This document shows, piece after piece, positions 16,324 through 38,576 of a DNA stretch of 64,000 nt. How positions within the stretch are numbered: position 1 is the stretch's first letter; each line of letters starts with the position of its first letter. The stretch comes from Bacilli bacterium (GTDB lineage: Bacteria; Bacillota_I; Bacilli_A; ML615J-28; CAG-698): NCBI GenBank assembly GCA_050953045.1, contig JBMNLY010000001.1:156534-220533 (forward strand). Reading direction: 5' to 3'. Below the pieces are notes generated by a model. That model had not been told where the DNA came from and did not search any database. It saw only the letters and a list, made by a program, of their open reading frames with translations. Made by a program: the position numbers and the translations under genes.

Positions 16324-16330
16324 AAAATTT

Positions 16331-16360
16331 GAGAGGGTAGCTCTCTACCCTCTTTATTTT
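16331..16360. terminator. bidirectional terminator between uxaC and pectinesterase
   Basis: AGAGGGTAGCTCTCTACCCTCT hairpin flanked by A-run/T-run. Confidence 0.55.
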
Positions 16361-17268
16361 AATATATTTTCAACTGTATATTTTTCTTTTTCTTCATCTG
16401 AAAGCGTTTTAAGGAAATCCACCCGTTTATATTCAAAATCGCCTTTGTAACGGCAATCAGTTTCATAGAAGCGGCAGGTTTTTTCTCTACCTTCCACCCA
16501 GTTGTGGAAACCTTCTTTTTTAATGTGTTTTTCATAAACGCAATCAATGAATACCGCTTTTCCGTTATTACGCCAAGGGCGAGCAAGATAAGTGTTATTT
16601 TCGCCTGCTCCTGTAAAGGTGCAATTTAAGAATGTGAAACCGTATTCCTGGTTTTCTGGTGTCGACGGTGCCGCCACATAGCCTGAGCTCAAAGAAATAA
16701 TCTGGCAATTTGTGAAGACAGCGTTTGCGGAGCCGAAGATAAAGTCGACATCGCCGATGATAGTTGAAGATTTAATTAAAACGCGTGCATTTTCGATTGT
16801 AATTAATTCATCAGCAGGTAAGAAATTTTCATATCTTACAGTTAAATCTTCCGGTAAGGGTCCTAAGAAAATTGTGTCCTGATACGATTTGATTAAGCAA
16901 TTGTTAATTTTTATCTTATCTCCCAATGTGTGTAAGGCGACCGCTTGACCATAGATAGCTCCGGGACCGCTTCCGTTTTCAATCGTTATATTTTTCAGTT
17001 CGATATTATCGGCCGCGAGCATTAAAGTATAGGTTCGAAAAGTATTGTATTCCAATCCGTCCTTATGGATTTTCTTTGCATAATCATTATTGGTTATGAT
17101 TGTTTTTTTCGGATTGAAACCATAGATTTTTAAGTTAGGTTTTTTGATTTTGAGTTTTTCTTCATATCGGCCCGGAAAAACTATAATCGTTCCTCCGGCC
17201 TCTACTAAATTTACAGCCTTACCTATACTATCAATGTTTGTGCCTTTTTTAACTACTATAGTTTTCAT
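16354..17268 (-). CDS. pectinesterase (pectin methylesterase, CE8)
   Basis: GQAVAL, QDTIFLG, DFIFG, LARPW motifs. Confidence 0.85.
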   Translation of the reverse strand: MKTIVVKKGTNIDSIGKAVNLVEAGGTIIVFPGRYEEKLKIKKPNLKIYGFNPKKTIITNNDYAKKIHKDGLEYNTFRTYTLMLAADNIELKNITIENGSGPGAIYGQAVALHTLGDKIKINNCLIKSYQDTIFLGPLPEDLTVRYENFLPADELITIENARVLIKSSTIIGDVDFIFGSANAVFTNCQIISLSSGYVAAPSTPENQEYGFTFLNCTFTGAGENNTYLARPWRNNGKAVFIDCVYEKHIKKEGFHNWVEGREKTCRFYETDCRYKGDFEYKRVDFLKTLSDEEKEKYTVENILK

Positions 17269-17394
17269 CCTCTCACCTCACAATATTATAACACAAAAAT
17301 AAAATTCCTTCAAAGGTCTTTTAAAGGTCTTAAAATTTGAGATTTTTAAAATAATTTTGAAACAAAATAACTTAACTAAGAAGAGGTTGATTCA

Positions 17395-18942: not shown

Positions 18943-18956
18943 TATGGAGGTATAGT

Positions 18957-19757
18957 ATGGTATTAGAAAACTTTAGACTTGATAATAAAATTGCTTTGAT
19001 AACCGGAGCTTCTTATGGCATCGGTTTCGCGATTGCAAAAGGTTTATCTGAAGCCGGAGCAAAAATTGCTTTTAATGACATTAATCAAGATCTTGTTGAC
19101 AAGGGTTTAAAAGCTTATAAAGAAGCGGGAATTTCCGTGAAAGGTTATGTTTGCGATATCACTGATGAAAAACAAGTTCAAGAACTTATAAAGAAAATCG
19201 AAGCTGACCTAGGCACGATCGACATTTTGGTAAATAATGCAGGTATTATTAAAAGAATCCCGATGATCGAAATGAGTGCCGAGGATTTTAGGAAAGTAAT
19301 CGATATTGATTTGACCGGCCAGTTTATTTGTGCGAAAGCTGTTATTCCGGGAATGATAAAAAAAGGCGGCGGTAAAATCATTAATATTTGTTCGATGATG
19401 AGCGAACTGGGTCGGGAAACTGTCTCCGCTTATGCCTCTGCCAAAGGTGGCTTGAAGATGTTAACTAGAAATATTGCCTCCGAATATGGCGAATATAATA
19501 TTCAATGCAACGGGCTTGGACCCGGATATATTGCGACTCCGCAAACAGCGCCTTTACGGGAAAGGCAAGCTGACGGAAGTCGCCATCCCTTTGATGCTTT
19601 TATAATTGCCAAAACACCTGCAGGCAGATGGGGAACTCCGGAAGACTTGACCGGACCCGCGGTTTTCCTTGCTTCTGAAGCTTCTAATTTTGTAAACGGT
19701 CATATTCTTTATGTTGACGGCGGTATTTTAGCCTATATCGGTAAACAACCATCATAA
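18957..19757 (+). CDS. kduD: SDR oxidoreductase, KduD/gluconate 5-dehydrogenase family
   Basis: TGASYGIGFAIA...NNAGI...YASAKGG motifs; pectin context. Confidence 0.7.
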   Translation: MVLENFRLDNKIALITGASYGIGFAIAKGLSEAGAKIAFNDINQDLVDKGLKAYKEAGISVKGYVCDITDEKQVQELIKKIEADLGTIDILVNNAGIIKRIPMIEMSAEDFRKVIDIDLTGQFICAKAVIPGMIKKGGGKIINICSMMSELGRETVSAYASAKGGLKMLTRNIASEYGEYNIQCNGLGPGYIATPQTAPLRERQADGSRHPFDAFIIAKTPAGRWGTPEDLTGPAVFLASEASNFVNGHILYVDGGILAYIGKQPS

Positions 19758-19762
19758 AAAGT

Positions 19763-19795
19763 AAAGGGGTCTTTAGATAACTAAAGCCCCTTTTA
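19763..19795. terminator. bidirectional terminator
   Basis: AAGGGGTCTTTAGATAACTAAAGCCCCTTTT. Confidence 0.55.
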
Positions 19796-19796
19796 A

Positions 19797-20030
19797 TTAA
19801 CATCGTCTACGATTGTCACTTAAGAAGATAACAAAGGCAGCAACAACAGCAATGATGACGAAGAGGACAAAGATGACAACTAAAGCGATAACAAAGATGC
19901 TACCAGCGCCTAAGCCTAGGCTAAAAGGAATCAACAGCGAGAGCCCAATAACTCCACTTAAAAGTAAAAATCCGAAGAAAAGAATTGCTGATCTGATAGT
20001 TTCACCCCCTTTCATCCTGTTTGCATTCAA
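19797..20030 (-). CDS. small hydrophobic membrane protein (hypothetical)
   Basis: 77-aa ORF, two predicted TM helices, abuts terminator; no recognisable family. Confidence 0.25.
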   Translation of the reverse strand: MNANRMKGGETIRSAILFFGFLLLSGVIGLSLLIPFSLGLGAGSIFVIALVVIFVLFVIIAVVAAFVIFLSDNRRRC

Positions 20031-20202
20031 ACACCAGGGGTATTATTAATATATTCTTTAAAGGAAATAATGAAGTGGTATTCGTACAATAATTAAAAAT
20101 TGCACCTAATATATATCAAAATTGTAAAATGACTTATATTTACCCAAAAAGAAAAACCCAGTGCTTAAACCGGGTTTAGTTAGTTTTGTTGTTATAAATT
20201 AT

Positions 20203-21249
20203 TTATAAAATTTCGCTATAGGCGAGGATAAACGGAGCGACGCCTTTTACTTCATCGCTTTTTATTTTTTCTGATAAATAATAAGCAATCGAACCGTCGC
20301 GTCTTTCGTTGTCAAGACCGGCAACTTCGCAAATACCGCCTAAGTGATAACCATTTTCATCTTGATAGAAATAACGCTTTATTGTTGCATTAAATATTTC
20401 ATTGCCTTTCTCAAAATATTCTTTCTCAAGTAAGCCTAAACGAGCTCCTTTTAAATAGGCATAGCATAACATCATAGTTCCGCTTGTTTCATGGTAATTA
20501 CCTTCAACATCGGGGCGGTCAATGATTTGTAACCACATACCGTCCTGTTTGTATTGATCGATGCCTTTTACTAATTCCTGAAACATTTTTAATATATTCG
20601 CATCCGCTCTAAGGATTAGCATCTCAAGTAAAGCCATAGCCAGCCAGCCAACCGAGCGCGACCAAACAATTGGACTTTTACCTGTTTCCTTATCTGCCCA
20701 TTGCATGACTTTTTGTTCGTCATAAGCGTGTAAATATAATTCTTTTTCTTCATCAAAGAGATATTTTCTAACATTCGCAAGCTGGTTGTCAATGTCGGCT
20801 AAGATTTCTTCTTGTTTGTTTTTAAGTGCAAATTTTGTTAAGAAGACCTGGCCCATATAAATCCCGTCCAGCCAAACTTGATAGGGATAGCGTTTTTTAT
20901 GCCAGAAATTCCCTTCCTTAGTTCGAGGATGATGTTTTAACTGTTCAAATAATTCAAGAATTGCATGGTGATATTTTTCTTTTTTTGTTTTTTCAAACAT
21001 ATCAAAAAGAGCAATACCGGGAGCGATATTATCAATATTATACTCGCTCTGTGTAAAACCTTTTATCTTTCCTTCTGAATCAATCATCTCATCATAGTAT
21101 TTTTCTACAAAATCAAAATAAGTTCGATTATTTGTTTTTTCGTATAAACAAAGTAAAGCATGCATTAAGATGCCGTCTTCATAGCACCAAGTGCCGCTTT
21201 TATAGGGACGGAAACTATCCATGTATTGTTTGATATAGGTTTTAATCAT
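20203..21249 (-). CDS. glycoside hydrolase family 88/105 (unsaturated glucuronyl/rhamnogalacturonyl hydrolase, YteR-like)
   Basis: 348 aa, SRSVGWLAMAL and ETSGTMMLCYAYLKGARLG motifs typical of Glyco_hydro_88 fold. Confidence 0.7.
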   Translation of the reverse strand: MIKTYIKQYMDSFRPYKSGTWCYEDGILMHALLCLYEKTNNRTYFDFVEKYYDEMIDSEGKIKGFTQSEYNIDNIAPGIALFDMFEKTKKEKYHHAILELFEQLKHHPRTKEGNFWHKKRYPYQVWLDGIYMGQVFLTKFALKNKQEEILADIDNQLANVRKYLFDEEKELYLHAYDEQKVMQWADKETGKSPIVWSRSVGWLAMALLEMLILRADANILKMFQELVKGIDQYKQDGMWLQIIDRPDVEGNYHETSGTMMLCYAYLKGARLGLLEKEYFEKGNEIFNATIKRYFYQDENGYHLGGICEVAGLDNERRDGSIAYYLSEKIKSDEVKGVAPFILAYSEIL

Positions 21250-21770
21250 AACGGATACCTTTCTTTCACTTTAGCTTTAAATCTTAAATATAAATCATTA
21301 TCATAATCATCTTTTGGAATGAAATCTAAAAATTCGGGACCAAGATAGTCATAGGTTAAGGAAGCTAAGAGCAGAAGCGCTTTTTCTAAATCAAGTCCTT
21401 CCCTCAGCAAGTTCTTCATTACCTCAGAAAAATCAGTGCAGAGGCTCTGATATTCGTCATAAAGCATTTCATCCATCATTTGCAGAGCGAGAAAACCTGC
21501 TTGTCCATAAGCTAAGGAATTTTCCTTTTTTGCTTTAAACTCATTTAAAAGCCGATGAAGGTTTTCCATTTTTTGAAAATGGCGGTCATAACCGATTAAG
21601 AAAGGATATTTGATGATACTTCGAGATTCTAAGAGAATGGGATAAAATTCAACTAAGGATTGTTTCAACTCACTTTTTGGTTCTTTTTCATATTTCTTCA
21701 ACATCATAAAAGCGCAGGGAGGAAGGTCTTTACCCAAACAAAAATCAAGATATTTATGGAAGATATTCAT
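21246..21770 (-). CDS. hypothetical protein (174 aa), translationally coupled to neighbours
   Basis: ORF overlaps upstream stop and downstream start by 4 nt. Confidence 0.45.
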   Translation of the reverse strand: MNIFHKYLDFCLGKDLPPCAFMMLKKYEKEPKSELKQSLVEFYPILLESRSIIKYPFLIGYDRHFQKMENLHRLLNEFKAKKENSLAYGQAGFLALQMMDEMLYDEYQSLCTDFSEVMKNLLREGLDLEKALLLLASLTYDYLGPEFLDFIPKDDYDNDLYLRFKAKVKERYPL

Positions 21771-22597
21771 ATATTAGCCTCCAATTCTTTGACATATTCA
21801 CGGCTAGTTTTAATATCATCACCGGTAACACCTTCAAAAACTAAAACGGCATCAGGAATATTTTCTTTGATTGTCCTAATCAGATAGGGATAATCCATCA
21901 AGCCTTGGCCGAGTCCCACTTGTTTTAATGTTCCTTCCGAAACAATAAAATCTTTCAAGTGAATGACGGTGATCTTATCTTTTAAAAGTTCAATTGCGGT
22001 CTTAAAAATCTCCCGTTGGTTTTGGTAATTATTGATATTCAAGTAATTATATAAATCAATAATTACGCGAAGGTTTTGGGAGGGAATCTCATCGACCAAA
22101 CGTTTTAAGAGTTCAGGATTATAAATTAAATGGTTATAGGCCCCTTCAATTAATACACAGGCATCCACCATTTCCGCATAACCCACCAAATCACGGATGA
22201 TTTCCCGAACTTCCAAATAGGATTCTTCGAGATGATTGCGGGGATGATAAGTCCAGGGTGAATCCTGGTAGGAACCGGTTTCGGTTCCGACATAGGGAGT
22301 ACCAAAGAATTTTGAAAATTCTAAATGTTTTTTAAAGCGAGCAATATTATTGTTTCGAAATACGAGATCGCTATGGACGGGGTTGAAATAAGAACCGAGC
22401 AAAGCAATTTTTACTTTTTGTTTTTGAAAAGGTTCCAGCAGTTTTTCAATATTGAAAGGACTTAATTCTTCAATATTGATTCCGAAAGCTTTATTAAGCA
22501 CTAACTGTAAATAATCGAACTCAAAATGGCGGGCTAGAGCCGCTAGTTCTTCAGAAGTATTTACCTTTAAATCGTGAGCACGAATTCCTATTTTCAT
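21767..22597 (-). CDS. sugar phosphate isomerase/epimerase (xylose isomerase-like TIM barrel)
   Basis: 276 aa, MKIGIRAHDL... TIM-barrel AP-endonuclease/xylose-isomerase-like pattern. Confidence 0.6.
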   Translation of the reverse strand: MKIGIRAHDLKVNTSEELAALARHFEFDYLQLVLNKAFGINIEELSPFNIEKLLEPFQKQKVKIALLGSYFNPVHSDLVFRNNNIARFKKHLEFSKFFGTPYVGTETGSYQDSPWTYHPRNHLEESYLEVREIIRDLVGYAEMVDACVLIEGAYNHLIYNPELLKRLVDEIPSQNLRVIIDLYNYLNINNYQNQREIFKTAIELLKDKITVIHLKDFIVSEGTLKQVGLGQGLMDYPYLIRTIKENIPDAVLVFEGVTGDDIKTSREYVKELEANI

Positions 22598-22794
22598 TAT
22601 ACCTCCTCATAAATTTGCATCTTTTTTCAAAACATGTTATAATTTGAGAGTAAAGGGTTTTTCTTTCTCTATATTTGGAAATGGCTATTTATACCTATTA
22701 TATCAAATTTAGGTTTGATAGTAAATCCCATTTCAAGCTTGGGTTGATAATTTTCCGAAAATCGACTTTTTTTCCGAGAAAAACAAGAAATTGC

Positions 22795-23350: not shown

Positions 23351-24445
23351 ATGAAAAAATATGCCGTTTCGACCGCAAAATCCAATCTGATCCATCTTAA
23401 CCGCTTTCGAATTAAAAACCTGAGAGTAGTGGAAGAAAAGCTGGAATTCATTACCGACAAACGGAATTTGGAAGAAATCTCAAAAATAATTCCTTTGGAA
23501 TATCTTGATTTAACAACATCCAAATTAAAAACTGTAGTCAAGAAACATTTAATTACGATCATTGGTACTTTAATAATCATTTTTGCTTTGATTATTCAAA
23601 GCAAATCAATCCGCGAAGTTATTTTTACTGACCCTGATACTTATAATCCGGAAGTTCTTTCCTATCTTGACAAATATTTCGATCGCTTTGGTCCTCTTGG
23701 CTTTCTAAAAGAAAACTTAACCACAATTAATACCGATCTCCGCAGTGAATTCTATCATTATGAATGGATTGGAATCAGAAGAAACGGCGCGACTCTTTAC
23801 ATTGACATTAGAGAGATAAAAAACGCTCCGATAGTGGAAGATAAAACCCCAGGTTCGATTTATGCGAAAGAATCGGGGATAGTGAAAAAGTATCATGTTG
23901 AAAGAGGTTTGGTGCTGGTACAAGAAGAAGTTTATGTTGAAAAGGGGACTCTTCTTATCAGCGGCGAACTGATTCATTTAGATAGCACTGTCGAAAATAT
24001 CCGTGCCAAAGGTTATGTGATTGCGGAAGTGTTGAGGTATCACGATTATACGATTCGGAAAGTAAAAGTCGAAACTGTTAGGACCGGAAGGATGGAAATC
24101 AAAAAAAATTATTATTTTTTTTCTAAGAAATTAAATAAACATAAAGTTAGTTTTCAGGAATATGAATCTGAAACTGGCGAATTAAAAACACTTGGTCTTA
24201 TAAAAATTGAGAAGGAATACTTCTATGAAATCAAAGAAGTCAAGACAGTTTATTCTGAAGAAGAAGCTATTGCTTATGCGAAATCGCAAGTTGTAAAAGC
24301 GTTTCGGAAAAACAAAGTCAGTCCACTTGAAAAAATAATCTATAATAAATTGGTAAAAATAGAATTTGACGGCACCTATTATCGCGTCAGATTGATTGTA
24401 AAAACATATCAGAATATAGCTGAATTTATTCCGCTGATAAACTAG
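23351..24445 (+). CDS. yqfD: sporulation protein YqfD (stage IV-like, single TM)
   Basis: 364 aa, TM LITIIGTLIIIFALII; synteny. Confidence 0.6.
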   Translation: MKKYAVSTAKSNLIHLNRFRIKNLRVVEEKLEFITDKRNLEEISKIIPLEYLDLTTSKLKTVVKKHLITIIGTLIIIFALIIQSKSIREVIFTDPDTYNPEVLSYLDKYFDRFGPLGFLKENLTTINTDLRSEFYHYEWIGIRRNGATLYIDIREIKNAPIVEDKTPGSIYAKESGIVKKYHVERGLVLVQEEVYVEKGTLLISGELIHLDSTVENIRAKGYVIAEVLRYHDYTIRKVKVETVRTGRMEIKKNYYFFSKKLNKHKVSFQEYESETGELKTLGLIKIEKEYFYEIKEVKTVYSEEEAIAYAKSQVVKAFRKNKVSPLEKIIYNKLVKIEFDGTYYRVRLIVKTYQNIAEFIPLIN

Positions 24446-28113: not shown

Positions 28114-28152
28114 AAACAAGATATGAAAATGATATCATTTCAAAAAGGCTAT

Positions 28153-28180
28153 TCACAATTTCCAAGTTTTATGTTATAAT
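28153..28180 (+). promoter_or_regulatory. promoter for rnf operon (TTCACA -17- TGtTATAAT)
   Basis: spacing and extended -10; RBS AAAGGAGG before GTG 28219. Confidence 0.45.
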
Positions 28181-28218: not shown

Positions 28219-29517
28219 GTGTTTATTAAGAGTAAAGGAACACATATTTCGGAACACAAAGGCCATAAGGAACTCTCTTCAACAGCACCGGTCTTTGAAT
28301 ATTTAAAACCGGAATATGTCTATATTCCTTTAGTAGAATCCAATGCACCCTGCGAAGCATTAGTTAAAGTCGGAGACACCGTCAAAATAGGACAAGTTGT
28401 TGCAAAAAAGACAGGCCGTTTCCCGATTAATTTGCATGCATCGGTTAGCGGTGAGGTTGTTTCCATTAATCAAAGAATGTGGCATTGTTCGGGAAAAATG
28501 GTTCCGACAATTCAAATTAAAAACGATTATAAGGAAACAAAAGTTGAGACAAAGCCTAATGATGTCGATTCTTTAACTAAAGAAGAAATAATCGAAATCA
28601 TCAAGGATTGCGGCATTGTCGGTCTTGGGGGCGGAAGTTTTCCGGCTTATGCGAAATATCAAACAGATCACAAAATTGATTATGTGATTTTGAATGCGGC
28701 TGAATGTGAACCTTATCTTACTGCTGATTATACATTGCTTAATCATAATTTAGATACGGTTTTGCGTGGATTAAGATATATCATGAAAGCCGTTTCTTCA
28801 GAACGTGGCGTTATCGCCATCAAAGCAAACAAAAAAGCTTTAATTGAAAAAATCAGGCTGGCGATAGCCGATCAAAATGATTTGAGTTTGTTTCTTTTGA
28901 AAGACGTTTACCCCGCAGGTTGGGAGAAATATATAGTTCAAAGAGTAACTAAAAAGGATTATCACGGACTTCCGAGCGAAGCTGGAGCCGTTGTCAACAA
29001 TGTCGGCACAGCGCATGCGGTTTGCCGCGCAGTCGAAGAAAATCAACCGCTTGTTGATAAAATCCTTACTATTACCGGCGAAGGTATTAAAAATCCCCAA
29101 AATGTTCATGTAAAAGTAGGAACAAATTTGAAAGAAGTTATTCAAGTCATCGGCGGTTATCAACCTGATTTAGGCGACGCTTATCTGATAGCCGGCGGTC
29201 CGATGACAGGAAAATCTGTTGTCTTTGATAACCTGATTGCGAATCGTGCTTTAACAAGTGTTGTTGTAATGCCGAAAGACATTCGCGAAGTCAATCCTGA
29301 ATGTATGGGTTGTGGAAAATGTAGCGATGTCTGCCCGGTCTTCCTGTCTCCGATTGTCATCAGAGATACACTGAAAGATAATGAAGTTGAAAAACTCGTC
29401 GAACTAAGACCGGAACTTTGTATGCAATGTGGATTATGCTCATATATCTGCCCGTCAAGAATCGAACTAACGGATGCAGTAGTCAGAGCTAAAAATAGAG
29501 TGTTGACAAGAAGGTGA
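28219..29517 (+). CDS. rnfC: Rnf complex subunit C (NADH/FMN-binding, two [4Fe-4S])
   Basis: CMGCGKCSDVCP and CMQCGLCSYICP; SLBB/NADH-binding core; GTG start. Confidence 0.85.
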   Translation: MFIKSKGTHISEHKGHKELSSTAPVFEYLKPEYVYIPLVESNAPCEALVKVGDTVKIGQVVAKKTGRFPINLHASVSGEVVSINQRMWHCSGKMVPTIQIKNDYKETKVETKPNDVDSLTKEEIIEIIKDCGIVGLGGGSFPAYAKYQTDHKIDYVILNAAECEPYLTADYTLLNHNLDTVLRGLRYIMKAVSSERGVIAIKANKKALIEKIRLAIADQNDLSLFLLKDVYPAGWEKYIVQRVTKKDYHGLPSEAGAVVNNVGTAHAVCRAVEENQPLVDKILTITGEGIKNPQNVHVKVGTNLKEVIQVIGGYQPDLGDAYLIAGGPMTGKSVVFDNLIANRALTSVVVMPKDIREVNPECMGCGKCSDVCPVFLSPIVIRDTLKDNEVEKLVELRPELCMQCGLCSYICPSRIELTDAVVRAKNRVLTRR

Positions 29518-30242
29518 GACATATGAGTGAAAATAAAAAATTTATCTTAAGCAAAGAACCTTTTATTAGAAAAGCCGACCATAACGAAAATACAACGGTG
29601 ATGATGCGCGATTTTATGATCGCCTTGTTTCCTTTGATTATTTTTGCTTGGGTTAAAAACGGCTTAATTCCATATCTTAACGATGCAACAAATTTCTTCG
29701 GAATGCTTTATCCGCTCCTTTTAGTTTTAGTGGGCGGCCTTTCCGCATTTCTGTTTGAATTTTTATGGTATAAATTTCTTATCAAAAAAGAAGATGTGAA
29801 GATTAGCTTATCTAAGAGCTATCCTTTGATACCGGGAATTCTCCTTGGGATGATCGTTCCCTTAGCAACGCCGTTATGGTTGGTTGTTATCGGTGTCTTC
29901 TTTGCGACGGTAATCGGAAAACTGCTCTTTGGCGGCTTTGGAAACAATATCTTTAACCCCGCCCTTATTGGTTATCTTTTCTTAACTTACGCTTATTTTA
30001 ATGTCATTACCGGAGACAATGCTTTAATCAATGCAAGTGGCTTTTTTAATGCGAAAGAAGTTGCTGATGCTATAACTACTGCCACTCCGATGACTATTTT
30101 CGCAAACGATCGTGCCGGTGCTGTTAACCAAATCCTTAGAAAACTACACTCTTTGGGATATGTTCCTTGGAATGAAACCGGGTTCGCTTGCGGAAACAAG
30201 TGTCTTACTCTGCTTAATTTCCTTAGTATATCTAATTGTTAG
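29514..30242 (+). CDS. rnfD: Rnf subunit D, N-terminal two thirds (frame interrupted around 30112-30142)
   Basis: MRDFMIALFPLIIF..., NqrB/RnfD family; reading frame ends in non-homologous tail while homology continues in +1 frame ORF 30112..31734. Confidence 0.75.
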   Translation: MRHMSENKKFILSKEPFIRKADHNENTTVMMRDFMIALFPLIIFAWVKNGLIPYLNDATNFFGMLYPLLLVLVGGLSAFLFEFLWYKFLIKKEDVKISLSKSYPLIPGILLGMIVPLATPLWLVVIGVFFATVIGKLLFGGFGNNIFNPALIGYLFLTYAYFNVITGDNALINASGFFNAKEVADAITTATPMTIFANDRAGAVNQILRKLHSLGYVPWNETGFACGNKCLTLLNFLSISNC

Positions 30243-31734
30243 AAAAACTATCAATTGGCGCATTCCCGTTATTTATCTTGGAACCGTATTTGTATTAACT
30301 TATATTATCGGTGCTTTTAACGGTTATGCAGGGACTCTAAACTATGCTCTCTTCGGGCTCTTAAACGGTGGTCTCGTGTTCGGGGCTGTCTTTATGGCAA
30401 CTGAACCGGTAACAAGTCCCAGAACTCCGAACGGGAAAATCATCTATGCCTTTGGCTTAGGTGTCTTGACCATTCTTTTCCGCTTCGCTAGCTCGATGCC
30501 TGAAGGTGTTGCTACTTCAATTTTAATTCTGAATATGTTTACAGCTTTAATTGAACGTATTTCCGCAAAACTCCGTGTTGAGCCGAATAAAATTAAAGTT
30601 GCTCTTAATTATGTTGTAATCGGACTTTTATTCTCCGGAATTAGTGTTTTTGCGGTTGTAAAAAATGTTCCGACGGAAATCGTTACTCCTGAGATTGTGG
30701 TAGAAGTGTCTGTTTACGAACAAGATTTTGATACTCTAAACTTTAAATATACATTAACTGTTGACGGCGAAGAAGTGATTGTTGAAACAGATCAAAGTTA
30801 CAAGATTTTAAATATCAGCAATCCTGAATTTAAAGCAAATGAATATAAAGATGCAATTTCAGAAGCTATCAGCAAGAAAAAAATGACGCTTTATATTCTT
30901 GAACATTTAGAAACAGATGATGAAATCATTCTTTATGTTAATACCAAAGGTTTTGCTGTGAATATGACAGCAACTATCACCTTCAACAATGATTTTGAAA
31001 TGACCTCTTATTCGGTTGATACTAGAAATGAATCTTACCAACATTATGGAGATTGGAATGGTAAACATCCTGATGAAGAAGTTCCAAATCAGATTATTGA
31101 AAATCAGACTGATTTAGGCCAAGTTCAGGTTGTAACCGGAGCAACAATTACTTCAAAAGCTTTGGTAGAAGCTGCTCGTTTAGCTTTAGATTATGTTGAA
31201 TATCTTGAAAACCTAACAACAATAAAGCTTGTAAATAGTTATCAAAACTTAGAAAACTTCAATTTTATTTATCTTTTCCGAAATGCTGACGGTAAATTTA
31301 AAGTCGAAGCCGATCAAGATGGCAACCTCTTAACTACGGTAAATGAAGATATTAAAGCTGAAGTAGAAGAAGCGGTTTCCGAAAATCTGCTTGAAGAATA
31401 CATCGTCGGTGCAGGTACTGAAGCAAATAGCATTGTTGTAAAAACAAAAGGCTATGGAAATAATCCTGCTTTAGAATCTACAATCACCTATGATCCTGAT
31501 ACCTTAAAAATTACCGGTTTTAAGACCAATACCGAATCAGAAACATATCAATATAGTCAAAGCTGGACCGGCGAAGAGCCTGGTCAAGTGATGCCGAATC
31601 GGATTGTTACCGGTCAGGATGATTTAGACAATGTTGATACAGTAACCGGTGCTACCGTCACCTCAAAATCTCTTATCAGAGCCGCTAAACTCGCTCTTGA
31701 GTATTTGGCTTACTTAGGAGGCAATAATGAATAG
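30112..31734 (+). CDS. rnfD: RnfD C-terminal third fused in-frame to an RnfG-like module (TM helix + two FMN_bind domains)
   Basis: ..LWDMFLGMKPGSLAETS..EPVTSP..ILILNMF (RnfD C-term) then TM YVVIGLLFSGISVFAVV and two FMN-binding motifs VVTGATITSKA / TVTGATVTSKS. Confidence 0.7.
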   Translation: MPVLLTKSLENYTLWDMFLGMKPGSLAETSVLLCLISLVYLIVRKTINWRIPVIYLGTVFVLTYIIGAFNGYAGTLNYALFGLLNGGLVFGAVFMATEPVTSPRTPNGKIIYAFGLGVLTILFRFASSMPEGVATSILILNMFTALIERISAKLRVEPNKIKVALNYVVIGLLFSGISVFAVVKNVPTEIVTPEIVVEVSVYEQDFDTLNFKYTLTVDGEEVIVETDQSYKILNISNPEFKANEYKDAISEAISKKKMTLYILEHLETDDEIILYVNTKGFAVNMTATITFNNDFEMTSYSVDTRNESYQHYGDWNGKHPDEEVPNQIIENQTDLGQVQVVTGATITSKALVEAARLALDYVEYLENLTTIKLVNSYQNLENFNFIYLFRNADGKFKVEADQDGNLLTTVNEDIKAEVEEAVSENLLEEYIVGAGTEANSIVVKTKGYGNNPALESTITYDPDTLKITGFKTNTESETYQYSQSWTGEEPGQVMPNRIVTGQDDLDNVDTVTGATVTSKSLIRAAKLALEYLAYLGGNNE

Positions 31735-32272
31735 AACTTTAAAATATACATTGTTTTTGCTGATAATGGGTATTGTCGCCGGAGGATTATTAGCGCTTGT
31801 AAATAGTTTTACAGCACCGATAATCGAGGAAAGACAAAGACAAGCTGTTATGGAAGTTTTAGGCGAACATTTCGATTATCAGGATTATTCGCTTGATAAA
31901 GCAAGCGAATATCCAGATCGAGATACTGCCATAATGGCCATCTATTTTGCCCGCAATTCCGAAGGAGAAGTTGCTGCCGTAATTTACCAAACATCTGCTA
32001 AAGGTTATGGAGGTCAGATTGTCTCCTTAATCGGAATCAAAGCTGACGGCAGTTTCGATAATGTTGCGGTTGTGGAAGCTAGCGGCGAGACAAAAGGACT
32101 AGGAACACAGGTGCTTGATTTCGACTTCGGTGTCAACAATGAAAGCGTGAATGATTATTCATATAATTCCATTTCGGGTGCCACCGTTTCATCGGCAGCA
32201 GTACACATCGGAATTGATGTTGCTGCGGCACATTTTAAGAGGCACTTTATAGGAGGAATAACTAATGAATAA
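31727..32272 (+). CDS. rnfG: Rnf subunit G (FMN-binding)
   Basis: N-term TM, SGATVSSAAV flavin-attachment motif. Confidence 0.8.
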   Translation: MNRTLKYTLFLLIMGIVAGGLLALVNSFTAPIIEERQRQAVMEVLGEHFDYQDYSLDKASEYPDRDTAIMAIYFARNSEGEVAAVIYQTSAKGYGGQIVSLIGIKADGSFDNVAVVEASGETKGLGTQVLDFDFGVNNESVNDYSYNSISGATVSSAAVHIGIDVAAAHFKRHFIGGITNE

Positions 32273-32798
32273 TAATAAAAATGAAGTACTCTTAAACGGA
32301 ATTTGGAAAGAAAATCCGGTACTTGTTTCCCTTTTAGGATTATGTTCCGTACTGGCGATTTCACTTACCATTGAAAATGCACTCGGAATGGGCATAGCCT
32401 TCTCATTTGTCTTAATTATGTCGAACGTGATTATCTCATTAATCAGAAACATCGTTCCTAGTGAAATTCGGATTCCTGTCTACATTGTCGTCGTTGCAAC
32501 TTTGGTTGTAATTGTCGAAATGTTAATGGCGGCATTTCTTCCCGCTCTTTATGAAAGTTTAGGAATATTCATTCCTTTGATTGTTGTTAACTGTATCATC
32601 TTAGGAAGAGCCGAAGCTTTTGCTTCCAAAAACGACGTTTTTGATTCGTTCTTAGATGCGATTGGCATGTCACTCGGATATACGATCGTTCTCATTGTTC
32701 TTTCTATGGTCAGAGAGTTTTTCGCTTCTGGAAATATTACAATCTGGGGAAATCTGCAACTTTCCCTTCCTGAAAAAGTGAAAGAAATCTTTTGCTGA
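32265..32798 (+). CDS. rnfE: Rnf subunit E, frameshifted near 32790 (true C-terminus continues in +1 frame to 32907)
   Basis: RnfE/NqrD pattern; +1 frame after T4 run encodes ..FFTDFFVKPPSAFILLGVFIGVANIINNSLKGAKK and ends TAATG overlapping rnfA start. Confidence 0.75.
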   Translation: MNNNKNEVLLNGIWKENPVLVSLLGLCSVLAISLTIENALGMGIAFSFVLIMSNVIISLIRNIVPSEIRIPVYIVVVATLVVIVEMLMAAFLPALYESLGIFIPLIVVNCIILGRAEAFASKNDVFDSFLDAIGMSLGYTIVLIVLSMVREFFASGNITIWGNLQLSLPEKVKEIFC

Positions 32799-32906
32799 TT
32801 TCTTCACCGATTTCTTTGTTAAACCACCTTCAGCATTTATCTTGCTCGGTGTCTTTATCGGTGTTGCTAATATTATAAATAATTCTTTGAAAGGAGCTAA
32901 GAAATA

Positions 32907-33485
32907 ATGGGTGAACTCATAACTTTAGCTTTTACTGCTATCGTCATTGAAAATGTTTTGTTAGCAAGATTCTTAGGGGTTTGCCCGTTCTTAGGCGTCT
33001 CGAAGAAACGTGATTCCGCGGTTGGAATGGGACTCGCAGTTATCTTTGTTATTACTCTTTCCAGCGTTGTCGCTTGGCTCCTTTATACTTATATTCTTGT
33101 TCCTTTTAAGATGGTTTACATGCGGACGATTATCTTCATTCTCGTAATCGCATCCCTTGTACAAATGATTGAAATGTTTATTAAGAAGATTTCACCGGCG
33201 CTCTATCGTTCGCTCGGAATTTATCTCCCGCTGATTACGACCAACTGTGCGGTTTTGGGTATGGCGACTCTTGTAGCCGATCCCTCCTACACATTTTTAA
33301 CCGCTTTAATCTTCTCGTTTGCTTCAGCGGTAGGCTTCTTATTCGTAATCTATCTATTTTCAACAATTAGGGAAAAGATTGCCCGTGGTGATGTTCCGAA
33401 AGCTTTCCAAGGCGTACCGATTGCTTTGATTACTGCCGGAATTATGGCGATGATCTTTTCTAGATTTGGAGTGTTGAATTTATGA
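32907..33485 (+). CDS. rnfA: Rnf subunit A
   Basis: 192 aa, MGELITLAFTAIVIENVLLARFLGVCPFLGVSKK. Confidence 0.85.
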   Translation: MGELITLAFTAIVIENVLLARFLGVCPFLGVSKKRDSAVGMGLAVIFVITLSSVVAWLLYTYILVPFKMVYMRTIIFILVIASLVQMIEMFIKKISPALYRSLGIYLPLITTNCAVLGMATLVADPSYTFLTALIFSFASAVGFLFVIYLFSTIREKIARGDVPKAFQGVPIALITAGIMAMIFSRFGVLNL

Positions 33486-33781
33486 TCTTAAATGTTTTCC
33501 AAACATATTTCTTGCCCGCAATCGTTCTTGCGGGTACAGGCGCCATTTTCGGTCTTTTGATCGGCGTTTTTTCCAAAATTTTTGCAGTCGAAGTTGACGA
33601 GAGACTTTCACAATTAATCGAAATGCTTCCCGGTTATAATTGCGGTGCTTGCGGTTATCCCGGTTGTGCCGGTATGGCTGAGGGTCTTTCGAAAGGTGAA
33701 GTTGAAGTAGCTTCATGCAAACCCGCAAAAGAAGAAGTTCGTGATAAAATTAGACAATTTTTGAAAGAAAATTACAATTAG
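33482..33781 (+). CDS. rnfB: Rnf subunit B, short form: TM + N-terminal Fe-S domain only, no ferredoxin-like domains
   Basis: CGACGYPGCAG...C four-Cys cluster motif; ORF stops at 99 aa; no downstream coding remnant. Confidence 0.65.
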   Translation: MILNVFQTYFLPAIVLAGTGAIFGLLIGVFSKIFAVEVDERLSQLIEMLPGYNCGACGYPGCAGMAEGLSKGEVEVASCKPAKEEVRDKIRQFLKENYN

Positions 33782-33807
33782 TAAAACATTTACATTTTAA
33801 AAGATGA

Positions 33808-33836
33808 TTGTATAATTAAAGCCTATATGGTATAAT
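33808..33836 (+). promoter_or_regulatory. promoter of the pre-insertion lipoprotein gene (TTGTAT -17- TGgTATAAT)
   Basis: followed by RBS AAGGAGGA and ATG 33875 now separated from its ORF by the transposon. Confidence 0.4.
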
Positions 33837-33876
33837 ACTTATGTCTTAAGTAATATTAAGGAGGAAAAGACGACAT

Positions 33877-33884
33877 GTTAAAAA
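33877..33884 (+). repeat. 8-bp target site duplication GTTAAAAA (left)
   Basis: identical 8-mer abuts the outer end of each IS copy; second at 38577..38584. Confidence 0.75.
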
Positions 33885-33979
33885 GATTAAGCCCTTATAA
33901 TTGTGTAAAAAGAAAATGAGCCACAAACTCATATCCTCGGTTAGAATATAAGTGACAAACAAATACCAAACCGAGGAGG

Positions 33980-35197
33980 ATGAAATCCATGGCTCAGTTT
34001 AATATTACCCTAACCGAAGAAGAATTGCACGGACTTTTTATAAGCAACGGACGAGATGTAGCCGTAGCAAAATTGCTAGAAAAGATCTTTAATGAGATCC
34101 TTCGAGGCCAGTCCACTGAACAGCTATGTGCTGAACCGTATGAGAGAACCGATCAGCGAAGAGCATACCGTAATGGCAGCTATAAGCGTGAACTGGTGAC
34201 CCGGGTTGGAACACTGACCTTACGCATTCCTCGCCACCGAAACGGCGAATTCAGCACCGAACTTTTTGAACGTTATCAGCGGAGCGAACAGGCACTGGTG
34301 CTGGCCATGATGGAAATGGTGGTTAATGGTGTCTCTACTCGGAAAGTAGAAACCATCACCGAAGAACTCTGTGGCAAGAAGTTTTCTAAATCAACCGTTT
34401 CAGCTCTTTGTCAGAAATTGGACCCGCTGGTTCATGACTTTCGAACAAGACCGCTGGAAAGCCACTATCCGTTTTTGATAGTCGATGCCCTTTATCTCAA
34501 AGCGCGCATTAATAACAGGGTACAATCCAGAGGCTTACTTGTCGCTATCGGTGTCAACGAAAAAGGAAATCGGGAAGTTATCGGCTTTCAAGTGGCCAAT
34601 AGCGAATCGGAAAGCAGCTGGAGCGATTTTTTTGAATCATTAAAAGAGCGAGGGCTGAAGGATGTGCACCTGGTGACTTCCGACAACCATAAAGGCCTGG
34701 TGAATGCCATTCAGAAACAATTCCAGGGAACCACTTGGCAAAGGTGTCAAACCCACTTTTCAAGGAACATGATTGATCAGACACCCAAATCGCTGCAGGT
34801 CGAAATGAAGGAAGATCTGCGCCGACTTTACGAAGCCGTAGACCTGGAAAGCGCCAAAGGTGTCCGGGATCAGATTATTGCCACATATGAATCCAAAGCG
34901 CCTAGAGCAACATCCTTACTGGATGAAGCCTTTGACGATATTACCGCCGTTTTAATCATGCCACTCAAATACCGCAAAAGACTGCGTACAACCAATGGGG
35001 TAGAACGGCTTAACCAGGAAATCCGGCGTCGTGAACGGGTTATACGTATTTTCCCTAACGAGGCATCAGTGATCCGGCTCATGGGTGCCCTGCTGATGGA
35101 ACAAAGCGAAAAATGGCAGACAGGGTGTAAATACTTTGAGATGGATCTGTATTACCAGGCTATGAAAAAAGATTCAAAAGATACGTTTGCTGCTTAG
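33980..35197 (+). CDS. IS256-family (MULE) transposase; probable true start ATG 33989
   Basis: YPFLIVDALYLKAR, WQRCQTHFSRN, RTTNGVERLNQEIRRRERV signature blocks. Confidence 0.85.
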   Translation: MKSMAQFNITLTEEELHGLFISNGRDVAVAKLLEKIFNEILRGQSTEQLCAEPYERTDQRRAYRNGSYKRELVTRVGTLTLRIPRHRNGEFSTELFERYQRSEQALVLAMMEMVVNGVSTRKVETITEELCGKKFSKSTVSALCQKLDPLVHDFRTRPLESHYPFLIVDALYLKARINNRVQSRGLLVAIGVNEKGNREVIGFQVANSESESSWSDFFESLKERGLKDVHLVTSDNHKGLVNAIQKQFQGTTWQRCQTHFSRNMIDQTPKSLQVEMKEDLRRLYEAVDLESAKGVRDQIIATYESKAPRATSLLDEAFDDITAVLIMPLKYRKRLRTTNGVERLNQEIRRRERVIRIFPNEASVIRLMGALLMEQSEKWQTGCKYFEMDLYYQAMKKDSKDTFAA

Positions 35198-35217
35198 AGT
35201 CGCATTTATTCCACGGT

Positions 35218-35401
35218 CCTGGTTGACAGTGAGCCTCTAGCCGCATGGCTTCTGGCACCACAGGCAGCCCCCTGTTCACAACTGCCTACCTGGTCCTAAT
35301 GGGTGATTTAAAGCTGCCGAGTATTGCCATAAAGGTTGTCCCGTGTTTGGGTGCTGCCAGGCTTTTAGCCTACCATGCGGCCTCTCACTGTTCAACCAGG
35401 C
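35218..35401 (+). other. GC-rich structured segment inside IS 3' region (long-range stem CCTGGTTGACAGTGAG...CTCACTGTTCAACCAGG, inner stem GCCGCATGG/CCATGCGGC); candidate IS-borne RNA element
   Basis: 314-bp non-coding tail after transposase stop, nested inverted repeats. Confidence 0.35.
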
Positions 35402-35505
35402 TTTCGCGGCATAAAAGCTCACGGTTTGTGATACTGAAAAAGTGAGCAGCCTTAACAACAAACTGATTAAAGTGTTACCGAGGAAATTTACACACTAATT
35501 GGGAC

Positions 35506-35534
35506 TTGACTTTGTAACGTTTGCATATTATCAT
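35506..35534 (+). promoter_or_regulatory. possible hybrid promoter: outward -35 TTGACT at IS end + flank -10 TATCAT (17-nt spacer) directed at SDR gene
   Basis: IS256 ends are known to create hybrid promoters; geometry fits. Confidence 0.35.
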
Positions 35535-35621
35535 ATTATTACAGTATTTGATTCGTGTGTTAACCAAATAGCGGAAATGTTAAACGAAAAGAAAGAGGTG
35601 ATGTGTAAGTAGAAACACCTG

Positions 35622-36059
35622 AAAGATAAAAATTTAGAAAGGTGGAATCTATAATGGGTAAATTAGATGGCAAAGTAGTAGTAGTGACAGGTTCAGTTTC
35701 AGCGATTCCTGGTTTTGACTCTATCGGTTCGGCAACAGTTCGTGAAGCATTGGCTGAAGGAGCAAAAAAAGATAAAAATTTAGAAAGGTGGAATCTATAA
35801 TGGGTAAATTAGATGGCAAAGTAGTAGTAGTGACAGGTTCAGTTTCAGCGATTCCTGGTTTTGACTCTATCGGTTCGGCAACAGTTCGTGAAGCATTGGC
35901 TGAAGGAGCAAAAAAAGATAAAAATTTAGAAAGGTGGAATCTATAATGGGTAAATTAGATGGCAAAGTAGTAGTAGTGACAGGTTCAGTTTCAGCGATTC
36001 CTGGTTTTGACTCTATCGGTTCGGCAACAGTTCGTGAAGCATTGGCTGAAGGAGCAAAA
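35622..36059 (+). repeat. tandem triplication (3 x 146 bp) of SDR gene leader + RBS + first 37 codons
   Basis: ATGs at 35654, 35800, 35946 each preceded by GGTGGAATCTATA; upstream minigenes end ..ERWNL TAA overlapping next ATG (TAATG). Confidence 0.9.
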
Positions 36060-36875
36060 GGGGTAGTTGTGTCCGACATTAACGACAAATTGGGTGAAGC
36101 TTTTGTTAAGGAATTAAATGAGAAATACGGTGAAGGACACGCAACTTTTGTTCACACTGACGTATCTAAACCTGAAGATGTTGAAAAATTATTTGAAACT
36201 ACAGAAAAGGTTTATGGAACTGTAGATGCAATAATGGCTAATGCCGGCGTGGTAACTGCAGAAGATGTCGATAAAGATCCGGAAGAAGTCTTGAAATCTC
36301 GTAAATTTATTCAAAGCATCAATGAAGATGGAGTATTCTATACAGCATTATATGGTTCTCGTTTAATGATCAAAAAAGGAACAAAAGGTTCAATCGTAAT
36401 GGTTTCCAGTATTCATGGTGTTGCAGGTCGTCCTAAAGTTGTAAATCAGGAAACAGGCGATGTTTTAATTGAGCGTTTCAATTTACTTCAATATACAATG
36501 GGTAAACATGGCGTAGTTGGTTTATCAAAAGCATTAGCCCTGCAATTAGCAGATTATGGTATACGCGTAAATACTGTAAATCCAGGTTATATTATGACAC
36601 CATTATTCCAAGCAGCTGTAGCTGCCGATAAAAACGATCTGGCAGATAAAGATTCATTGACAACAGAAGCATTTGACTTTGCTCAATTAGCAGCATTACA
36701 CCCATTATGCAATGACCCTGTAAAAGATAAAGATATCGTTCCTCGCGGCAAATTCGGCGGCCGGATGGGGGTTCCTGCTGAAATTGCTAAGCCTGCGGTA
36801 TTCTTAATGTCAGATGAAGCATCCTTTGTGACAGGTCAAAAATTAGTAATTGATGGGGGTTATACTGCAAGCTAA
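35946..36875 (+). CDS. short-chain dehydrogenase/reductase (SDR) family oxidoreductase, transposon passenger
   Basis: YTMGK (YxxxK), NTVNPGYIMTPL, atypical Gly-rich N-term TGSVSAIPGFDSIGSA; ORF-track start 35934 is an upstream GTG. Confidence 0.75.
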   Translation: MGKLDGKVVVVTGSVSAIPGFDSIGSATVREALAEGAKGVVVSDINDKLGEAFVKELNEKYGEGHATFVHTDVSKPEDVEKLFETTEKVYGTVDAIMANAGVVTAEDVDKDPEEVLKSRKFIQSINEDGVFYTALYGSRLMIKKGTKGSIVMVSSIHGVAGRPKVVNQETGDVLIERFNLLQYTMGKHGVVGLSKALALQLADYGIRVNTVNPGYIMTPLFQAAVAADKNDLADKDSLTTEAFDFAQLAALHPLCNDPVKDKDIVPRGKFGGRMGVPAEIAKPAVFLMSDEASFVTGQKLVIDGGYTAS

Positions 36876-36949
36876 AAGCAACCTAATAATCACTAAACCG
36901 TGTAAATGGAATAATGATCTAAAAATCTAGTTAGGGGCTGCTGAAAAAC

Positions 36950-38576
36950 GATTAAGCCCTTATAATTGTGTAAAAAGAAAATGAGCCACAAACTCATATC
37001 CTCGGTTAGAATATAAGTGACAAACAAATACCAAACCGAGGAGGATGAAATCCATGGCTCAGTTTAATATTACCCTAACCGAAGAAGAATTGCACGGACT
37101 TTTTATAAGCAACGGACGAGATGTAGCCGTAGCAAAATTGCTAGAAAAGATCTTTAATGAGATCCTTCGAGGCCAGTCCACTGAACAGCTATGTGCTGAA
37201 CCGTATGAGAGAACCGATCAGCGAAGAGCATACCGTAATGGCAGCTATAAGCGTGAACTGGTGACCCGGGTTGGAACACTGACCTTACGCATTCCTCGCC
37301 ACCGAAACGGCGAATTCAGCACCGAACTTTTTGAACGTTATCAGCGGAGCGAACAGGCACTGGTGCTGGCCATGATGGAAATGGTGGTTAATGGTGTCTC
37401 TACTCGGAAAGTAGAAACCATCACCGAAGAACTCTGTGGCAAGAAGTTTTCTAAATCAACCGTTTCAGCTCTTTGTCAGAAATTGGACCCGCTGGTTCAT
37501 GACTTTCGAACAAGACCGCTGGAAAGCCACTATCCGTTTTTGATAGTCGATGCCCTTTATCTCAAAGCGCGCATTAATAACAGGGTACAATCCAGAGGCT
37601 TACTTGTCGCTATCGGTGTCAACGAAAAAGGAAATCGGGAAGTTATCGGCTTTCAAGTGGCCAATAGCGAATCGGAAAGCAGCTGGAGCGATTTTTTTGA
37701 ATCATTAAAAGAGCGAGGGCTGAAGGATGTGCACCTGGTGACTTCCGACAACCATAAAGGCCTGGTGAATGCCATTCAGAAACAATTCCAGGGAACCACT
37801 TGGCAAAGGTGTCAAACCCACTTTTCAAGGAACATGATTGATCAGACACCCAAATCGCTGCAGGTCGAAATGAAGGAAGATCTGCGCCGACTTTACGAAG
37901 CCGTAGACCTGGAAAGCGCCAAAGGTGTCCGGGATCAGATTATTGCCACATATGAATCCAAAGCGCCTAGAGCAACATCCTTACTGGATGAAGCCTTTGA
38001 CGATATTACCGCCGTTTTAATCATGCCACTCAAATACCGCAAAAGACTGCGTACAACCAATGGGGTAGAACGGCTTAACCAGGAAATCCGGCGTCGTGAA
38101 CGGGTTATACGTATTTTCCCTAACGAGGCATCAGTGATCCGGCTCATGGGTGCCCTGCTGATGGAACAAAGCGAAAAATGGCAGACAGGGTGTAAATACT
38201 TTGAGATGGATCTGTATTACCAGGCTATGAAAAAAGATTCAAAAGATACGTTTGCTGCTTAGAGTCGCATTTATTCCACGGTCCTGGTTGACAGTGAGCC
38301 TCTAGCCGCATGGCTTCTGGCACCACAGGCAGCCCCCTGTTCACAACTGCCTACCTGGTCCTAATGGGTGATTTAAAGCTGCCGAGTATTGCCATAAAGG
38401 TTGTCCCGTGTTTGGGTGCTGCCAGGCTTTTAGCCTACCATGCGGCCTCTCACTGTTCAACCAGGCTTTCGCGGCATAAAAGCTCACGGTTTGTGATACT
38501 GAAAAAGTGAGCAGCCTTAACAACAAACTGATTAAAGTGTTACCGAGGAAATTTACACACTAATTGGGACTTGACT
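36950..38576 (+). mobile_element. IS256-family insertion sequence, copy 2 (identical to copy 1)
   Basis: identical sequence and ORF content. Confidence 0.8.
37045..38262 (+). CDS. IS256-family transposase (copy 2)
   Basis: identical to 33980..35197. Confidence 0.85.
   Translation: MKSMAQFNITLTEEELHGLFISNGRDVAVAKLLEKIFNEILRGQSTEQLCAEPYERTDQRRAYRNGSYKRELVTRVGTLTLRIPRHRNGEFSTELFERYQRSEQALVLAMMEMVVNGVSTRKVETITEELCGKKFSKSTVSALCQKLDPLVHDFRTRPLESHYPFLIVDALYLKARINNRVQSRGLLVAIGVNEKGNREVIGFQVANSESESSWSDFFESLKERGLKDVHLVTSDNHKGLVNAIQKQFQGTTWQRCQTHFSRNMIDQTPKSLQVEMKEDLRRLYEAVDLESAKGVRDQIIATYESKAPRATSLLDEAFDDITAVLIMPLKYRKRLRTTNGVERLNQEIRRRERVIRIFPNEASVIRLMGALLMEQSEKWQTGCKYFEMDLYYQAMKKDSKDTFAA

Follow-up and report, generated by a model that had tools for sequence, protein, structure and literature searches.

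An rnf operon of lineage-specific design in an Acholeplasmatales-like bacterium: RnfD fused to two FMN_bind modules, a minimal RnfB, and two frame breaks that probably reflect strain mixing

Introduction

In the Rnf complex of Clostridium tetanomorphum, both the N and the C terminus of RnfD are cytoplasmic (7ZC6; PMC9588780). The N-terminal part of RnfB in the same complex comprises a transmembrane (TM) helix and a small mobile domain, FdI, with the globular FdII+III portion binding RnfC (PMC9588780); the C-terminal domain of known RnfB proteins carries two to seven [4Fe-4S] clusters (2025 review, PMC12174285). Variants of this design include RNF gene clusters with a multi-flavinylated RnfG, for which a second electron path to extracytosolic acceptors has been proposed (Meheust et al. 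2021, eLife, PMC8238504), and two-subunit NQR/RNF-like systems, in which the NqrB/RnfD membrane domain is fused to an NqrF-type NAD-binding domain (PMC8238504; 2024, PMC10979944). The subject here is an rnf operon at positions 28219–33781 of a 64,000-nucleotide stretch of DNA from a Bacilli bacterium (assembly GCA_050953045.1, contig JBMNLY010000001.1, positions 156,534 to 220,533), referred to as the window.

In an uncultured, Acholeplasmatales-like member of the Bacilli, this region is probably—and this judgement is given jointly for the whole of the explanation set out below—a native operon of six genes, rnfC-D-G-E-A-B. Judged from sequence, its most likely product is a functional ion pump, a ferredoxin/flavodoxin:NAD+ oxidoreductase of lineage-specific design. 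By its profile matches and homologues, RnfD is naturally fused to a tandem pair of RnfG-like modules of the FMN_bind (flavin mononucleotide-binding) family, with an additional, eleventh membrane helix as the link, and RnfB is naturally reduced to a membrane anchor plus a small tethered [4Fe-4S] domain.

An operon with all six Rnf subunit families

The six rnf open reading frames (ORFs) follow one another with overlapping or abutting gene junctions, as read from the ORF map and translations. Pfam and NCBIfam return the expected Rnf subunit family for every ORF of the operon, and the models TIGR01945, TIGR01946, TIGR01947, TIGR01948, TIGR01943, and TIGR01944 match consecutive ORFs, placing all six subunit families in one operon. 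RnfC, RnfE, and RnfA score above the cutoffs of their TIGR models and RnfG below. All features of the operon lie on the forward strand. The first gene, rnfC (28219..29517), encodes an intact protein of 432 amino acids (aa) (TIGR01945, 355 bits; Pfam RnfC_N, Complex1_51K, SLBB, and Fer4), and rnfA (32907..33485) an intact protein of 192 aa (TIGR01943, 246 bits). A promoter-like site, TTCACA-17-TATAAT with a TG extension (28152..28180), lies 5′ of rnfC and is identified by consensus match only; between it and the GTG of rnfC at 28219, an AGGAGG ribosome-binding site can be read.

RnfD is fused to two FMN_bind modules

The rnfD gene opens at ATG 29523, where the encoded MSENKK is also the start of RnfD in relatives, and runs in frame 0 to 30137 (29523..30137; residues 1–205). 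An extra A at 30138 then shifts it to the +1 frame, in which it continues from 30139 to 31734. The profile PF03116 (NQR2_RnfD_RnfE) is divided between the two frames, with positions 3–153 matching the frame-0 ORF (29514–30242) and positions 155–291 the +1 ORF (30112–31734); the +1 part also matches TIGR01947 (E = 2.3e-12). Within this part the RnfD core extends to about 30588, the eleventh TM helix occupies 30589–30663, and the two RnfG-like FMN_bind modules occupy about 30691–31218 and 31219–31731. A separate, canonical rnfG of 181 aa follows (31727..32272; TIGR01947, E = 1.1e-19; PF04205). The first-pass annotation of this DNA had proposed such a fusion ahead of a free rnfG, and had noted that a stop and a start between the RnfD core and the FMN modules would speak for separate genes. 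The +1 ORF is stop-free throughout; PF04205 matches two stretches of it (E = 1.2e-21), and it holds two TGAT motifs with threonines encoded at 31144–31146 and 31654–31656.

The flavin-attachment threonine of the RnfD core, Thr188 (30084–30086), lies in the context TTAT-P, and T188-P189 is invariant in 11 homologues (alignment A3). RnfG possesses an SGAT motif at residues 150–153 (threonine codon 32183–32185). RnfD and RnfG both carry motifs of the [S/T]GA[S/T] type for predicted covalent FMN attachment.

The closest intact homologue, modelled with AlphaFold (mean predicted local distance difference test, pLDDT, 75.9), shows the added helix at residues 356–380, followed by two α/β modules with pLDDT values of 85–93. 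In Foldseek searches, the RnfD core matches solved RnfD chains with E-values of about 1e-11 to 1e-12 and target TM-scores of 0.74–0.81, and NqrB chains also match. The full model returned RnfD and NqrB chains only, so that this search is uninformative on the modules; compared with the PDB by sequence, the fused modules find only a weak RnfG match (E = 0.35), so Pfam and NCBIfam provide the basis for assigning their domains. Since the C terminus of RnfD is cytoplasmic in the C. tetanomorphum structure and one extra helix follows it here, the two modules would be located on the outer face of the membrane, beside RnfG. Up to four ApbE-type covalent flavin sites may be present—Thr188 of RnfD, the two TGAT motifs, and the SGAT of RnfG—and the extra flavins may lengthen the electron relay on the outer face or provide a branch towards external acceptors. 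Extra surface flavins could connect fermentation to external electron acceptors, and natural fusions of the RnfD–RnfG type place limits on any model that has RnfG swing between RnfD and RnfA/E.

A minimal RnfB

The last gene, rnfB (33482..33781), encodes a protein of only 99 aa, comprising a membrane helix and a single Cys4 Fe-S domain. The first-pass annotation had described it in these terms, as lacking a polyferredoxin domain, and the profile searches agree: PF04060 is its sole Pfam match, the Pfam scan finds no Fer4 family in it, and the C-terminal [4Fe-4S] ferredoxin modules are missing. Against TIGR01944 it scores 57.4, under the cutoff of 68.7. RnfB aligns with residues 5–74 of the 274-aa C. 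tetanomorphum protein (7ZC6_B), with the CxxCxxxxC...C motif kept, and matches the corresponding N-terminal part, TM helix plus FdI segment, of RnfB from Acetobacterium woodii and Azotobacter vinelandii. Such a minimal RnfB may accept electrons straight from soluble ferredoxin or flavodoxin.

Candidate soluble partners are encoded elsewhere in the window, namely a 55-aa 2x[4Fe-4S] ferredoxin (46322–46489, reverse strand), a flavodoxin (57260–57748, reverse strand), and a 234-aa protein with a C-terminal Fer4 domain (56438–57142, forward strand).

Truncation of RnfB by the transposon that lies next to the operon is rejected: RnfB is 99 aa in relatives from which the element is missing as well, so the transposon did not shorten it. 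Nor was rnfB cut by the insertion, as the element lies 104 bp downstream and has its own 9-bp target duplication.

The architecture is the norm among relatives

Both the fusion and the short RnfB are found in other genomes. Five close relatives (L001–L005; 69–96% protein identity) carry rnfC, an intact RnfD-TM-2×FMN_bind fusion of 682–736 aa, and rnfG and, as far as their contigs reach, an RnfE of 207–213 aa, rnfA, and an RnfB of 99 aa. With the 540-aa +1 ORF as query, 552 homologous proteins are retrieved at E <= 1e-5, the closest of which are intact proteins of 682–738 aa with 63–96% identity. Homologue lengths cluster near 380–410 aa (no FMN_bind domain), 560–600 aa (one), and 730–760 aa, and a few proteins exceed 900 aa (several domains). 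Two proteins, P0076 and P0081, apparently contain three to five modules.

A scan of the lineage, taking one genome per species, yielded 80 loci (L016–L095) from Acholeplasmatales, Izemoplasmatales, "Tenericutes/Mycoplasmatota", and other Bacilli metagenome-assembled genomes (MAGs), plus two complete genomes. RnfB is 80–110 aa long at every locus of these 80 species-level genomes where it was found except L078 (221 aa); the RnfB of L066, a contig-end fragment, was set aside in the length count. The number of FMN_bind domains in RnfD is 0, 1, or 2. Where RnfD is about 475–600 aa long and carries modules, a separate rnfG is usually missing, and such loci thus look like rnfD-rnfG fusions. Two fused modules together with a free rnfG, the type seen in the window, are common to its nearer relatives. 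At some of the 80 loci, RnfG is instead enlarged, reaching 549 aa, and in several of these it has two FMN_bind domains.

These comparisons show that many related genomes conserve the fusion and the short RnfB. The suggestion of the first-pass annotation that the locus might hold a genuinely novel fusion with a minimal RnfB is therefore right in that both are genuine; they are not peculiar to this genome, being the lineage norm. A literature search found no description of an RnfD-FMN_bind fusion or of an RnfB without ferredoxin modules, and an RnfB with zero modules seems to be undescribed in the literature searched, though it is the rule in the clade. The design thus seems new to the literature searched, yet is common and already automatically annotated in public MAGs. 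Throughout the clade, complete Rnf operons are retained in which RnfB is without any ferredoxin module; should such complexes be active, the polyferredoxin input domain would seem to be dispensable.

A broader proposal, put forward tentatively and judged less likely than not, is that the Rnf complexes of Acholeplasmatales, Izemoplasmatales, and RF39-like Bacilli constitute a distinct, undescribed class. RnfB would be a single tethered [4Fe-4S] domain, and RnfD would have absorbed one or more RnfG-like flavin modules. In lineages of the window's type, the surface flavin chain made up of two fused modules and a free RnfG would draw electrons off from NADH or ferredoxin and pass them to acceptors outside the cell. 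This chain could also be a strain-variable surface target, which would account for the recombination hot spot in the operon described below.

Two frame breaks at haplotype junctions

Frame is lost twice in the operon, once in rnfD and once in rnfE. The switch of RnfD from frame 0 to +1 was correctly recognised in the first-pass annotation; the A4 run named there as a candidate site sits at 30140–30143, not at 30138–30141, and the switch point falls between CTT (30135–30137) and GAA (30139–30141). The rnfE break is also as first described. The frame-0 part (32265..32788; TIGR01948, 221 bits; PF02508 profile positions 4–156 of 174) is followed by an extra C at 32789, beyond which frame 0 ends at TGA 32796–32798. 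The C terminus is encoded in +1 (32790..32907; NF009070 RsxE profile positions 185–213) up to TAA 32905–32907, which overlaps the rnfA ATG at 32907 as TAATG, and it is identical to the C terminus of RnfE in relatives. Deletion of one base per site gives a 736-aa RnfD (715/736 residues identical to P0001) and a 213-aa RnfE. In GenBank, the deposited RnfD is 524 aa long, RsxE 177 aa, and RnfB 99 aa; the contig encodes MGI6767652.1, MGI6767654.1, and MGI6767656.1.

Homopolymer sequencing errors had been offered as one cause, and neither extra base is a change in run length. Relatives show that an A has been inserted between CTT and GAA in rnfD and a C within a T5 run in rnfE (a T4 run lies at 32790–32793), which rules out an error of homopolymer length; both insertions coincide with haplotype junctions. 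At site 1, the haplotype of L001, L002, L006, and L008 reads ATC CTT GAA AAA TAC ACT and that of L004 and L005 reads ATC TTA GAA AAC TAC AGC (L007 is the same contig as L004). The window reads ATC CTT A GAA AAC TAC ACT, and so combines the C of the first haplotype with the A of the second. At site 2, nine loci read GAA ATT TTT GCT GAT (GAAATTTTTGCTGAT) and L008, L012, and L013 read GAT GTC TTT TCC GAT (GATGTCTTTTCCGAT), the in-frame haplotype strings being GAAATTTTTGCT or GATGTCTTTTCC. The window, with GAA AT-C-TTTT-G-CT GAT, has the backbone of the nine-locus haplotype and the C-TTTT string of the L008 type. At both sites, aligning the haplotype pair with gaps produces a +1/-1 indel pair, of which the window retains the insertion only. 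The extra base occurs in 0/6 other haplotypes at site 1 (L001, L002, L004, L005, L006, and L008) and in 0/12 at site 2, that is, in none of the haplotypes spanning position 32789.

This pattern makes it likely that the frameshifts are a consensus or polishing artefact of strain mixing. Two co-existing strain haplotypes would have been merged, the consensus keeping the insertion of one haplotype and dropping the compensating deletion. Both sites fall where strains differ strongly, in a block at 29.9–32.3 kb and in a small patch at 32.76–32.80 kb. The contig, 347 kb long, resolves two identical 1.6-kb insertion sequence (IS) copies 3 kb apart, which suggests a long-read assembly.

A genuine and very recent inactivation, with real one-base insertions in rnfD and rnfE, a non-functional Rnf, and an operon beginning to decay, would leave the same two breaks and is considered unlikely. 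It would accommodate the clustering of two independent frame breaks within 2.7 kb of a single operon when the other window ORFs tested by Pfam show no signs of disruption (several giving full-length profile matches), as well as the recent insertion of an IS256 composite element 104 bp downstream. The site-1 break lies in the linker region between the RnfD profile halves, with no evident ribosome-binding site before the next +1-frame ATG, and the product would probably be lost. Inactivation does not, however, explain why both insertions lie exactly at local haplotype differences and form the union of two known haplotypes. An alignment of 13 haplotypes over 29500–33886 also speaks against it, for the private alleles of the window are the two extra bases and one single-nucleotide polymorphism at 30333, and two indels to one substitution in 4.4 kb is a ratio unlike that of ordinary mutation.

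Alignment with the rnf operons of relatives shows the extra bases in none, and GCA_025563055.1 is one example of a relative with an intact operon. Against L001, L002, L004, and L005, the two single-base insertions of the window are the sole frame-breaking differences, and the remaining indels all lie inside rnf genes and preserve the frame; in about 18 kb aligned to L004, there is no indel outside rnfD-rnfE, the transposon junction aside. Apart from the extra base, rnfE, rnfA, and the sequence on either side of them match intact relatives at 100% identity, which also speaks against inactivation, and no further stops or indels are present. The exact RnfA protein is found on 21 other contigs and the 213-aa RnfE in 9/10 of the contigs listed; the exception, L009 (coverage 1.4), has neither insertion and no extra C. 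In all, frames are intact in the five close relatives and in 8/9 further contigs carrying the same RnfA. The truncated 177-aa RnfE occurs in no other dataset: among about 15 billion proteins it is found in this MAG only, and an exact look-up in assemblies returned no record. A pattern scan of JGI metagenomes for site 1 returned one locus, which is in frame. The ratio of non-synonymous to synonymous differences (pN/pS) of the rnf genes against L004 is 0.04–0.20, the differences being mostly synonymous, and the alleles are thus without sign of relaxed constraint. Pseudogenisation of the operon in connection with the transposon, as first suggested, is not supported, given the native architecture, the constrained alleles, and the placement of the insertions at haplotype junctions. 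The other explanation then offered, of sequence errors over a genuine fusion and a minimal RnfB, comes close to the evidence, save that the errors are not of the homopolymer kind.

Programmed +1 ribosomal frameshifting at CUU-AGA-A in rnfD and UUU-U-GC in rnfE would yield full-length RnfD and RnfE without any error or decay. The direction is +1 at both sites, UUU-U reads as a sequence that permits re-pairing of tRNA-Phe, and the CUU-A of rnfD resembles the yeast Ty1 slip site CUU-AGG-C. A programmed site should, however, be conserved, and the extra base is missing from all of the other haplotypes at both sites, including those with near-identical flanks; moreover, AGA and UGC would not be expected to be rare codons at a G+C content of 36.5%. 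Programmed frameshifting fails on this missing conservation and is regarded as extremely improbable.

Several considerations weigh against the combined account of a native, working operon with frameshifts introduced by strain merging. The verdict on the insertions is drawn from assembled sequence, and a real insertion in the strain, though unlikely, may have occurred; real recombination with a slipped heteroduplex could yield identical hybrid junctions. Two lesions in one operon are also typical of genuine pathway loss, and a mobile element has recently been active next door in the same strain. Furthermore, none of the ORFs of the 64-kb window scanned against Pfam is an ApbE gene, and the function and flavinylation proposed for the extra modules are inferences, as is the partner proposed for RnfB.

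If strain merging is indeed the cause, the locus is a worked example of how merging in a MAG creates frameshifts that mimic gene decay. Pseudogene counts in MAGs are to be read with such frameshifts in mind, and the resulting truncated proteins are already in GenBank.

Strain variation in the operon

The 3′ half of rnfD, the two FMN modules, and rnfG together form a hypervariable mosaic block (29900–32300). Synonymous divergence from L004 is 0.11–0.39 within this block versus 0–0.017 in recO, rnfC, rnfE, and rnfA, which suggests that the part of the Rnf complex predicted to be surface exposed recombines frequently. In P0127/P0128 (an ENA contig of 68,457 bp) and in the low-coverage L009, both of the same species group, the fused rnfD is split at differing positions. 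Hypervariable rnfD is evidently often mis-assembled in public assemblies.

The downstream transposon and the rest of the window

The downstream neighbour of the operon is an IS256-family composite element (33885..38575, forward strand), with two IS copies and a 9-bp duplication, TGTTAAAAA. The copies, each of about 1.6 kb (33885–35510 and 36950–38575), are identical over the 300 nt compared and encode the same 405-aa transposase, for which the ORF of the first copy was searched and matches Transposase_mut (E = 4e-129); an SDR gene (35934–36875) lies between them. The element is inserted after nucleotide 10 of a conserved 311-aa lipoprotein gene next to rnfB, 104 bp past the rnfB stop, and parts that gene from its promoter and ribosome-binding site. 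It is missing from L002 and L004, and the insertion leaves the rnf genes untouched. At 35622–36059, a perfect 146-bp tandem triplication spans the ribosome-binding site and first codons of the SDR gene, creating two extra 52-aa ORFs before the full gene; this could be a real amplification or an effect of assembly.

Elsewhere in the window, sporulation genes are found for SpoIVA, SpoIIM, and YqfD (6653–8128 and 62400–62888, with a YqfD homologue near 23351–24445), and it is likely that the organism, listed at NCBI under Acholeplasmataceae or Bacilli, has a cell wall and forms spores, unlike a typical mollicute. A pectin/uronate cluster at 14107–22606 (IclR regulator, UxaC, pectinesterase, GH28, SDR, GH88, and a sugar-phosphate isomerase-like protein) suggests an anaerobe that degrades plant polymers. 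Almost the whole of a 436-aa protein (8512–9822) is made up of ankyrin repeats (Ank_2, E = 1.7e-93), an uncommon feature for a bacterial protein. Two UPF0236-family ORFs lie on the reverse strand (12425–13861 and 2–694), the second running off the start of the window. About 1.1 kb at 57749–58845 has no ORF of >= 100 aa and no Rfam match; Rfam gave zero matches over the whole window.

Comparison with known systems

Like the Na+/H+-translocating Rnf complexes of, for example, C. tetanomorphum (7ZC6), A. woodii (9ERI), and A. vinelandii (8AHX), the system described here has all six subunits, encoded by an rnfCDGEAB operon whose stop and start codons overlap, and as in known Rnf complexes the flavin-attachment threonine of RnfD and the SGAT of RnfG are retained. 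Unlike in those complexes, RnfD is extended at its C terminus by one more membrane helix and a pair of additional FMN_bind modules, and RnfB is without the C-terminal ferredoxin modules. Two tandem FMN_bind domains on a surface protein are also known from a Gram-positive bacterium, in PplA of Listeria extracellular electron transfer, which resembles the fusion in this respect. PplA, however, is not fused to an Rnf subunit but is a separate lipoprotein supplied by Ndh2 and quinone.

Among described RNF gene clusters, those with a multi-flavinylated RnfG (PMC8238504) similarly bring two or more ApbE-type FMN_bind domains to the outer face of Rnf—a location that is predicted in the present case—and RnfD shares with multi-flavinylated extracytosolic proteins the presence of two or more PF04205 domains in one polypeptide. 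The extra domains here are, in contrast, on RnfD and not on RnfG. The text of PMC8238504 mentions neither an RnfD-FMN_bind fusion nor a short RnfB, and its supplements examined contain no Acholeplasma entries. The two-subunit NQR/RNF-like systems offer the other close parallel, in that a membrane protein of the RnfD family bears a C-terminal fusion and is partnered by an outer FMN_bind domain. In those systems, the fusion is a cytosolic NAD-binding domain (PF00175), the RnfD threonine is lost, and RnfA, RnfE, RnfB, and RnfC are missing; the operon described here, by contrast, encodes the full set of Rnf subunits, with an RnfD that retains the threonine and is fused to domains of the FMN_bind family.

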